Virus record (IMG/VR): IMGVR_UViG_2874962485_000008
Source of the DNA: a virus
Lineage: Duplodnaviria; Heunggongvirae; Uroviricota; Caudoviricetes
Direction: 5' to 3' (one strand)
DNA: 35,626 bases
Part shown: positions 3,001-6,000 of the stretch, piece after piece
How the letters are laid out: each line of letters opens with the position of its first letter
Position numbering within the stretch: position 1 is the stretch's first letter
Made by a program: the position numbers

Positions 3001-6000
3001 CATTACTTAACGTCAAACGCCCGAATTGAAGCCAAATCATCCAGACTGCTCAGCTCCTCTTTCATCTCCCGCTGACGGCGATAAATCTCATCGTTGCGAT
3101 CGACCTGCGCCTGCACCATTGCTGCCGCCAGTTCTTCCAGTTCCGGCATCGACAGTTTCACCTGCTGATTATCCGCATCACTCCACACCATATGTGTTTG
3201 TGCCGCGACAGATTTTGCCAGCATGACCACCGGGGACAGGCGGGCCACTGACGAGGCGTCAGCGTTCCACGTGCGGCCGTTCCATTCAAACGTGAACGGC
3301 TTCGCCTCCTGTTCTGTGCGCCATGCTTCAATTTCCTGACGTCTGGCCTCTCTGGCCGCTTCCAGCATTTCTGGTGTCACAGTGAATGGGGCTATCTCAC
3401 CCCATTTGCCACTTTGCAGTTCCTGCCAGATTTGCTGACCCGTCGGTGCAACATCATCAGCGGTGGCTGTGTAGGGAACTGCCTGGTCCCTGTCGTCAAA
3501 AAAAACGTCACAGTCTACTGCGCCACTTTCGGTATAACGGGGATTAATGATTTTTTTAATTTCCACGGTGCATTCCTCACGATGTGCGAATAAAAAGCCC
3601 GGGCATTGCGCCAGAGACATGTGCATCCGGCACCCCGGACAGGGCGCAATATGACCCCGGTAATGAATGCTCTGAACATCCCGTAATGAAAAATTGTGGG
3701 GATGCTATATACGTTCCGGTGGGAGTACCGGGCACTGAAATCCCCACCGGTCCCAGTCGTGAGCCTCTGTATGACTGCCCCCTGACAAGTCTGATGACTT
3801 TATCACCGTCAGCTTCTCCCTGGTACGCAGCAATAATCAGCCCGCCAATGTCAGGGTCTCCCCATCTGTTGCGGACAGAGCTCGCCACGATTCTGTAAAT
3901 AATATCTTCTGTGGTTATATTTATTTTCACCCAGTCAGTCTGGATATGGGCCAGTAGCGGTAGCGGGTGTGATAAATGGGGCCGTTAATGCCGTAAAAAG
4001 TAAGGGATTTGGCTCTGTACCGCGGTTCTGTTGTCTCAGGGCGTGCATCAGTCCACCGGATGCTGAGCACCCCTTCAAACCGTGTGTCGGGTATGATGAT
4101 GCCGTAGGGGCCAGCAACGGAATATTCACCTGGCAGCGCATTCCTTACCCAGGCCAGGAAATCACTCTTAGTGTCAAAACGGATAACATCTTCAGGCAGA
4201 AAAGCACACCCAAAGCCGAATGCGCCGGGTATCGCCAGACGGCCTTTTGTCCGGTCGTAAATGTCGCTCTGTGCTTCCATCGTGGCCGCACTTTTCAGCC
4301 CCAGATTATCCCGGGACTTCTGTTGTGCCTTTTCGCCTGCTGCTGCGATTTCTGACAGATGGTTAGCCATTTTCAGAGTGCCGGTCAGCGCAGCATCAAT
4401 GTCATTTTTGGCCTGTTCTGCTGCGCGGGCATAACCTGCGGCATCCTGTGCGCTCTGTCCGGCTGCGGCTGCATTTGCTCCTGTGCTTGTCACATCTTCC
4501 GCAGTGGCCTTTCTGTCCTCAGCTGTGACGGTTGCATCCTGTCGGGCTTTCTCCGCAAAACGTTGTGCATCATCACGGGCCGTTGCGGCTGCCGCCACAT
4601 CCTGCGCCGTCTGCTGTGCGTTTCCGGCTGCAGCCCCGGCACTCTGCTGCGCCTGCGCCACCATTTCCTCAAAGCGCTTCATCACCTCCGGACGTAAATC
4701 ACCATCCTTTGGTGCATTCAGAAACGCGTTCAGTGTCCCCGGTGCATCAGTCGGTGCCACATCAATATCCCCGACACGGGTTGGCTGCCAGCCGTTACAG
4801 TGAAGCGCAACCTCGTAATACCCCGGCTCAGCCTCAATCACATAAGCACCGTTATTGTCCGTCACGCAAGTGGCAACAACGTGTGCCACAACGGTCGGAC
4901 TGGTTCTTCTGGCCCGCAGTTCAATCGCACAATTTACGACAGGTTTACCCGCCCCATCTTTCAGTACACCTGAAATCTTTACTGCCATATTCACCCCACA
5001 AAAAGCCCGCCTGAACCAGCGGGCTGTCATAACACTGTGTTACCTGGCTAATCAGAACTTATAACCGACACCCACGATGAAACCGTCAGTGCGCCAGTCG
5101 CCACTGCCGGAACCTTCATAAGCAAGGTCAATGGCCACGGATTCGGTCGGGTTAAACTGCACGCCAGCCCCCCACGCCAGAGACGTGTTGCTGTGGCGGT
5201 TGTCATCACTCCCGGTCAGCACATCGTGCGTTTTCCCCTTGTTGTCAGTTACGCGGAGATAATCCCCGGAGAAGGTCGACACACGGCTGTAAGCCACGCC
5301 CGCCATCGCATACGCGCTGAACCATTCATTCACGCGCACAGACAGCCCCGCCATCACGCTGAACCAGCGGTTACGCACGGAATCCTCATGCCAGCGGGTA
5401 TCACTGTAATGCGTTTTTTGCTCATCTTCAGCGTTGGCATAGCTGAATGACGTCACCAGCCCCAGCGTGTCCGTAAACTCATAACGGTATTTCACGTTAA
5501 TCCCGTTCAGATCATCACTGCCGGGAGCGTTCGTCGAGGCATGAAGATACCCCGCGCTCAGCGTGGACCGATGTTCAGACGCCCATGCAGGCGCACCGGA
5601 TACAGCCAGACAGATGGCTGCGGACAAAATGGCAGCATAAAGTTTACGCATAATTACCTCTCGCTTTTCTGCAATAAAAAAGGCACCATTTCTGGTGCCC
5701 GTATCTGGGTTATAAAATTCAGCTGATACTGATACCTGCTGTGGATTTCTTCATCACAACAACCAGCAAATCGCTGATACTTGCTGTGGGATACCAGCCA
5801 TTTACCAGCCATGCCGATACAGAAAACTCCAGCGTCATGTGACCGTGACCGGCAGGCATATCAATAACACCCGTATATATCAGCGTATTATCCAGGGTCG
5901 TTCGGTTATAAATTTCAGCACCGTTTTTCTTCACTATCAGGCGGCATGACGAATAAATATTGTTATTCTTCCGCTCATGTTTAGCACCGCGAAACGCCAC

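Follow-up and report, generated by a model that had tools for sequence, protein, structure and literature searches.

A side-tail-fibre gene very probably split by the loss of one tetranucleotide repeat unit in a decaying Shigella flexneri prophage

How many genes make up the side-tail-fibre module of IMG/VR virus record IMGVR_UViG_2874962485_000008 (Caudoviricetes), the 35,626-nt stretch of DNA analysed here at its full length and referred to below as the window? Behind the genes for the tail-tip protein J and Lom, the minus strand carries a side-tail-fibre (Stf)-like open reading frame (ORF), a GTG-initiated ORF of 117 aa and a third ORF, which a first-pass annotation from the sequence alone had described as a mosaic module with a possible frameshift remnant. 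We are highly confident that the Stf-like ORF and the 117-aa ORF are one tail-fibre gene, split by the loss of a 4-nt repeat unit, and that the fibre gene is a pseudogene. The module is the tail-fibre end of a lambda-like prophage in the Shigella flexneri chromosome, a prophage that is decaying and carries an ipaH effector gene; the exact window proteins, including the 353-aa fibre fragment, are on record under S. flexneri names. Coordinates of all features are collected in Table 1.

One fibre gene in two reading frames

Domain searches on the three ORFs, as the first-pass annotation had suggested, gave PF08400 and phrog_2636 for the Stf-like ORF, the C-terminus of phrog_2636 for the 117-aa ORF, and PF14301 and phrog_1141 for the third; NCBIfam yielded no usable match for any of the three. 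The tail-fibre profile phrog_2636 (568 positions) matches the upstream ORF in two stretches, best at positions 1–184 (E=6.6e-164), and the 117-aa ORF at positions 456–567 (E=7.5e-45). No one polypeptide of the window spans the profile, which is covered by two ORFs in different frames, and the window fibre gene is a disrupted member of this family, in line with the suspected frameshift remnant. The 117-aa ORF is no gene family of its own. In a HMMER search of 1.84 billion cluster representatives, 61 matched the 117-aa region, which in nearly all of them forms the C-terminal end of a longer protein, of up to 1034 aa. Eight of the 61 fall below 210 aa, and a single one, at 119 aa, comes near the ORF in size. 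The ORF aligns to the C-termini of the intact fibres of E. coli STEC313, SE11, P13-6 and phage phiP27, with which it shares the motifs IGxLVxAAY, GSRL, LPGTYxALSG and GLFxR. The first-pass description of a fibre protein of about 350 aa with an Ala/Gln-rich shaft holds for the upstream fragment (353 aa; shaft residues 101–235 are 30% Ala and 10% Gln), but the different C-terminus it was credited with does not, the real C-terminus being the 117-aa ORF.

In intact relatives the frame stays open across the junction, and both pieces belong to one coding sequence (CDS). By megablast against complete E. coli genomes, ten cover at least 81% of window positions 2900–5100, nine of them all of it at 96.7–98.7% identity, and the three relatives examined (L001–L003) encode the fibre in one CDS of 470 aa, behind which lie a DUF4376 gene and an ipaH gene. 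Only two length differences separate the window from these three: 4 nt missing at the frameshift site, and an in-frame 3 nt at 4099–4101 that lies within a small substitution cluster (4099–4108; GPYGIII versus GRLGII), both forms of which occur in intact proteins. At the frameshift site relatives have GACTGACTGACT or GACTGACTGGCT, that is (GACT)3 or GACTGACTGGCT against (GACT)2 in the window; their junction is CCA GACT GACT GACT GGGTG (..RLTDWV..) or GACTGACTGGCTGGGTG (..RLTGWV..), and that of the window is GACTGACTGGGTG. A single 4-nt loss turns either progenitor into the window allele, GACT being lost from three copies or CTGG from two. The event would have been (GACT)3 to (GACT)2 or, equivalently, CTGGCTGG to CTGG, with replication slippage (slipped-strand mispairing) as its most likely cause.

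The 4-nt loss brings TGA 3929..3927 into frame behind ..RLTG; translation stops after residue 353, within the conserved distal domain, and the last 117 codons remain out of frame, in an ORF that by chance opens with an in-frame GTG. This GTG (3930..3928), which overlaps the upstream stop by 4 nt (GTGA), is an ordinary internal Val codon in intact proteins (..TDWVKIN.., ..DWVKINITT..; ..RLTDWVKINITT..). Re-insertion of GACT in silico gives an uninterrupted 471-aa ORF, and the 4-nt loss is therefore the only disabling lesion in the fibre gene. The first-pass annotation had proposed a check of read support across 3577–3626, but that stretch is collinear with intact relatives and differs by a single substitution at 3622; the lesion actually lies at 3933–3940. 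A prophage allele from enteroinvasive E. coli (EIEC)/E. coli in NZ_CP065615.1 illustrates the intact state. Its layout is the same (J, lom, fibre, DUF4376, convergent ipaH) and its DNA is 98.7% identical to window 2900–5100, but where the window has (GACT)2 and two ORFs it has (GACT)3, and its fibre CDS is unbroken (WP_197939858.1, 470 aa, 'prophage tail fiber N-terminal domain-containing protein', followed by the DUF4376 protein WP_197939859.1). The frameshifted gene of this relative is ipaH.

The fibre begins at ATG 4988 (MAVKISG..., 353 aa), since the 14-codon extension of the 367-aa ORF spans a terminator hairpin and relatives start at MAVKISG. This start is common to lambda Stf, PDB entry 9e7m and RefSeq relatives, and phage mEp460 has an annotated terminator under its match to the lom–stf stretch. 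ATG 5030, whose extra codons cross the hairpin behind lom, was accordingly rejected. PF08400 (phage_tail_N, "Prophage tail fibre N-terminal") covers aa 15–145 of the 367-aa ORF (E=1.2e-48), and its profile positions 1–131 match from residue 1 of the 353-aa protein, with 164.9 bits against a cut-off of 26.6.

Artefact, divided function or switch

A sequencing or assembly error would leave the true genome with an intact 471-aa fibre gene and make the missing 4 nt an artefact. Indels in short repeats are a known class of error and the closest E. coli relatives are intact, but a 4-nt loss is atypical of homopolymer error, and the exact 367-, 353- and 117-aa products occur on 111, 29 and 311 contigs, respectively, named S. 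flexneri and coming from NCBI, ENA and Logan assemblies; the 367-aa product is found in 121 index blocks, of which 18 include contigs of more than 1 Mb. The complete genomes CP026765.1 (L009/L010) and CP034931.1 (L012/L013) hold two prophage copies each, all with (GACT)2. Because the exact products stand on many contigs and both copies in two complete genomes carry it, the (GACT)2 allele is real and not a read error; we regard an artefact as extremely unlikely. The region duplicated in the two genomes is the tail region from L to the DUF4376 gene, copy 1 adjoining the bio genes and having a 587-aa IpaH, copy 2 adjoining dinI and an IS110 element and having a 583-aa IpaH. The copies of CP026765.1 are 99.9% identical over 9.2 kb, an indication that duplication or gene conversion followed the deletion. 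With the bio-side copy of that genome the window shares 99.94% identity over 11 kb. Junctions were compared at 20 loci, most (GACT)2 loci having been retrieved by look-up of truncated products (all 16 in this comparison). Every locus fetched via the truncated 367-aa protein has (GACT)2; E. coli L001–L003 and the Shigella-associated contig L017 have (GACT)3 or GACTGACTGGCT.

Given that the allele is real, might the split gene still function, with both the 353-aa and the 117-aa protein made, the second by reinitiation at GTGA, and the two complementing each other or taking new roles? We consider this very unlikely. The stop/start overlap is present and the 117-aa ORF is uninterrupted in all (GACT)2 loci examined, its exact sequence recurring on the 311 contigs, yet its GTG is the conserved Val codon of intact proteins, no Shine-Dalgarno-like motif precedes it (upstream sequence CCAGACTGACTGG), the break falls within a region conserved across homologues, and the 61 representatives include next to no standalone homologue of about 117 aa. 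The prophage moreover has a broken portal gene and an insertion sequence (IS), and therefore no virion for the fibre to serve, and the fibre and DUF4376 genes of related Shigella contigs carry additional breaks. Some observations do weigh against a simple pseudogene. The 117-aa ORF is still open and the GTGA layout can allow translational reinitiation, making it possible that a separate C-terminal polypeptide is produced. Substitutions between the window and intact relatives are too few for a relaxed-selection test. By sequence conservation the break would lie inside a single domain, and the distal fold is low-confidence: AlphaFold2 modelling of the intact S. sonnei homologue P0033 from a 10-sequence alignment gave a mean predicted local distance difference test (pLDDT) score of 53.6, and Foldseek of this model against the PDB matched the N-terminal domain only (9e7m_Ta, Ur-lambda Stf, and 7kjk_A3). 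A more speculative proposal, to which we assign a very low probability, is that the split is tolerated or used, the 353-aa and reinitiated 117-aa proteins, perhaps with the DUF4376 protein, assembling or serving the host, or else that the GACT/CTGG repeat is a recurrent slippage hotspot inactivating this fibre family. A tolerated or used split, if true, might account for the persistence of one and the same allele in the two prophage copies of S. flexneri.

The position of the lesion within a tetranucleotide tandem repeat, of which 2-unit and 3-unit alleles both exist, would suit a contingency locus in which GACT slippage switches the fibre on and off, or a programmed frameshift that still delivers the full-length protein. 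Phase-variable tetranucleotide tracts are, however, much longer than two or three units. Here only two or three are present, and Tandem Repeats Finder reported no array in 2900–5100, a 2-unit repeat being too short for that program. Repeat number also follows source among the loci examined (most (GACT)2 loci having been fetched via truncated products), and GGCT replaces the third GACT in some intact relatives, so the repeat itself is not conserved. Recoding would need a -1 shift, for which ...CTG ACT GGG TGA offers no slippery heptamer of the form X XXY YYZ. Both the switch and the recoding are in our judgement exceedingly improbable, and we retain the loss of one repeat unit from a single fibre gene, now a pseudogene, as the explanation of the two ORFs. 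Many Shigella genomes have an annotated 367-aa "tail component" and an annotated 117-aa "phage tail protein"; these would then be the halves of one pseudogene, and the result is chiefly of use for correcting such annotation.

A mosaic fibre and its DUF4376 partner

The window fibre is a mosaic of an N-terminal domain of the lambda Stf type and an unrelated distal module, as the first-pass annotation had recognised from the sequence, and is typical of its gene class. Alignment with lambda stf–tfa is confined to the N-terminal 121 aa (50% identity, E=9e-35), the distal part and the chaperone being unrelated. A PDB sequence search with the fibre likewise found its N-terminal domain only, matching 9e7m_Ta, the Stf N-terminal chain of the Ur-lambda tail-tip structure (E=3.4e-22). 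The 353-aa fragment has no distal match to lambda orf-401, and BLASTP of the 117-aa ORF against lambda orf-314 gave nothing significant, the best hit (E=0.043) covering 25 aa of low complexity; no distal part of lambda type was found. Among homologues shaft length differs by about 100–140 aa, and S. sonnei has intact variants of 340–374 aa (P0032, P0033) without most of the Ala-rich shaft. In Salmonella P0055 the same distal domain stands on a different, unrelated N-terminal part, joined at the conserved LGLKSAA. Substitutions are patchy as well, with 25 sites at 4443–4548 in the fibre shaft, against L003 only, and 14 sites at 3244–3276 in the DUF4376 gene, against L002 and L003, a pattern that would fit recombination tracts.

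The third ORF had been called tfa-like. It is instead a member of DUF4376 (PF14301), a chaperone-type family distinct from Tfa: its C-terminal PF14301 match scores 62 bits against a cut-off of 25 and phrog_1141 matches at E=6.8e-89, whereas PF02413 gave no match at E<=0.1 and BLASTP against lambda Tfa (orf-194) gave E=0.7. A PDB sequence search with this protein returned nothing significant. As to its start, called ambiguous in the first-pass annotation, comparison with four homologues places it at GTG 3566, for a protein of 187 aa. The homologues in STEC313, SE11, P13-6 and phiP27 are 187–188 aa long and start at or just past the fibre stop, and their Met aligns with V21 of the 207-aa ORF, which is GTG 3566 in the window. 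This GTG is preceded by GAGGA at 7-nt spacing, the motif overlapping the fibre stop TGA 3579..3577 (TGAGGAATGCACCGTG), and lies 10 nt past that stop, the same 10-nt-gap layout as in SE11. With this start the DUF4376 gene would therefore not overlap the fibre; of the overlaps with both neighbours claimed earlier for the 117-aa ORF, the 4 nt upstream stand, and the 50 nt shared with the 207-aa version downstream are lost. ATG 3626 is unlikely as a start on comparative grounds, although RefSeq annotates it, and the RefSeq 207-aa model probably over-extends into the last 16 codons of the fibre, starting 20 codons early. The substitution at 3622 is silent in the fibre frame but changes a residue in the DUF4376 extension, which lends weak support to GTG 3566.

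DUF4376 proteins tested in other phages suggest what this one may have done. Gp27 of Alteromonas phage V22 is essential for active gp26 fibres (PMC7289586) and the H-fibre of Campylobacter CJIE1 depends on the DUF4376 gene downstream of it (PMC7882524), while A5 gp9 is dispensable, the A5 fibre working without a chaperone and gp9 binding as a possible transient cap (PMC10579305). By analogy, the protein encoded in the window would have been the folding or trimerisation chaperone of the fibre. In V22 (gp26/gp27) and A5 (gp8/gp9) the DUF4376 gene lies directly downstream of the fibre gene, as in the window, but the DUF4376 domain is the only shared feature identified. Closer is the phrog_2636/phrog_1141 pair L56/L57 of phiP27, which is the same module, a fibre with PF08400 and the distal domain followed by a DUF4376 gene of 187–188 aa; the phiP27 fibre is 44% identical in protein sequence to that of the window and differs in shaft length, and in phiP27 and P13-6 the module stands in a tail-gene context different from that of the window. 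The combination of an Stf-type fibre and a DUF4376 partner is an ordinary, already catalogued prophage module.

The closest historical parallel to the window is lambda itself. The laboratory strain has stf (orf-401 and orf-314) and tfa (orf-194) in the same position after J and lom, and the lambda reference genome, too, annotates stf as two ORFs; Hendrix and Duda are said to have traced this split, in 1992, to a frameshift relative to Ur-lambda. The two cases differ in that the distal domain and chaperone are unrelated and that the window lesion is the loss of a 4-nt repeat unit at a different place.

The prophage around the module

In the window the gene order is J, lom, stf, DUF4376 gene and a convergent ipaH gene on the plus strand (Table 1). 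The rest is the structural, lysis and early region of a lambda-like prophage, with homologues of lambda I, L, tape-measure, major capsid, S49 protease, portal and terminase genes, and genes for a lysozyme, antiterminator Q and a DnaB-like helicase. The window opens with a PBP-family gene, which in near-identical loci is followed by aminotransferase (PF00202) and radical-SAM/BATS domain genes, read as bioA and bioB. By the lambda prophage map, this puts the prophage on the bio side of the gal–bio region with its tail-fibre end adjoining bio.

Table 1. Features of the fibre module and of the surrounding prophage, in window coordinates.
Feature	Position	Strand	Content or basis
Side-tail-fibre pseudogene, whole (very probable)	3577..4988	-	Stf-like N-terminal domain, Ala/Gln-rich shaft, ~220-aa distal domain
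Stf-like ORF as called, 367 aa	5030..3927	-	
5' fragment, 353 aa + TGA, ends ...YWPISRLTG	3927..4988	-	PF08400 (aa 1-131), shaft, first ~100 aa of distal domain
3' fragment, out of frame, GTG-initiated 117-aa ORF, fibre C-terminal subdomain	3577..3930	-	
Frameshift site, (GACT)2 on coding strand	3933..3940	-	alignment L001-L003; junctions of 20 loci
DUF4376 gene, 187 aa, putative tail-fibre chaperone, open and intact	3003..3566	-	PF14301, phrog_1141
Third ORF as called, 207 aa	3626..3003	-	
Terminator-like hairpin after lom	5004..5025	-	within spurious 14-codon extension of 367-aa ORF
Tail-tip protein J	9198..5719	-	
Lom	5651..5052	-	
ipaH, IpaH-type E3 ligase effector, 587 aa, intact	1060..2823	+	LRR_TTSS and NEL domains
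GC-rich hairpin and T-run between DUF4376 stop and convergent ipaH stop	2866..2887	-	
Portal ORF 1	22474..21419	-	PF05136 positions 2-288
Portal ORF 2	21504..20881	-	PF05136 positions 288-354
IS3-family element	24908-26064	-	HTH_Tnp_1 orfA 26064..25762, rve orfB 25726..24908
Group II intron reverse transcriptase/maturase ORF	34086..32563	-	
Intron_gpII Rfam match	32559..32473	-	64.9 bits

The fibre lesion is one of several that mark the prophage as defective, with the ipaH cargo gene retained. The portal gene lies in two overlapping frames (20881–22474, minus strand), and window 20800–22500 is 1 nt longer than the EIEC relatives, which are 99.9% identical and have a single annotated portal CDS; the split portal gene is a second frameshift in this prophage. 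The IS3-family element sits between the terminase large subunit gene (24642..22675) and the lysozyme gene (27060..26563). Decay of the module itself is seen in other Shigella-associated contigs: L018 and L021 have codon 2 of the DUF4376 gene changed from GAA to the stop TAA, L014 (7411–8029) has this gene split into 41 and 169 aa, and in L016 (4656–6927) the fibre is broken into three or more pieces, with a duplication of about 158 nt. In the closest E. coli relatives, L001 and L002, it is ipaH that is frameshifted and the fibre that is intact. The window adds to the examples of defective lambdoid prophages whose virion genes decay while a type III effector gene is kept; a literature search on ipaH, prophage and tail fibre found nothing specific to the fibre-gene lesion.

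Some smaller features were noted along the way. The hairpin at 2866–2887 is common to the converging ipaH gene and the fibre module, and a 59-aa ORF that spans it (3003..2824), called as a gene in some assemblies, is probably spurious. A further HTH_Tnp_1 ORF lies at 35468..35130. Four tRNA genes are clustered at 28270–28577 (minus strand), just downstream of the antiterminator Q gene (29193..28777), and a group II intron (32473–34086, minus strand) occupies the early region, adjoining DnaB-like and IstB/DnaA-ATPase-like genes.

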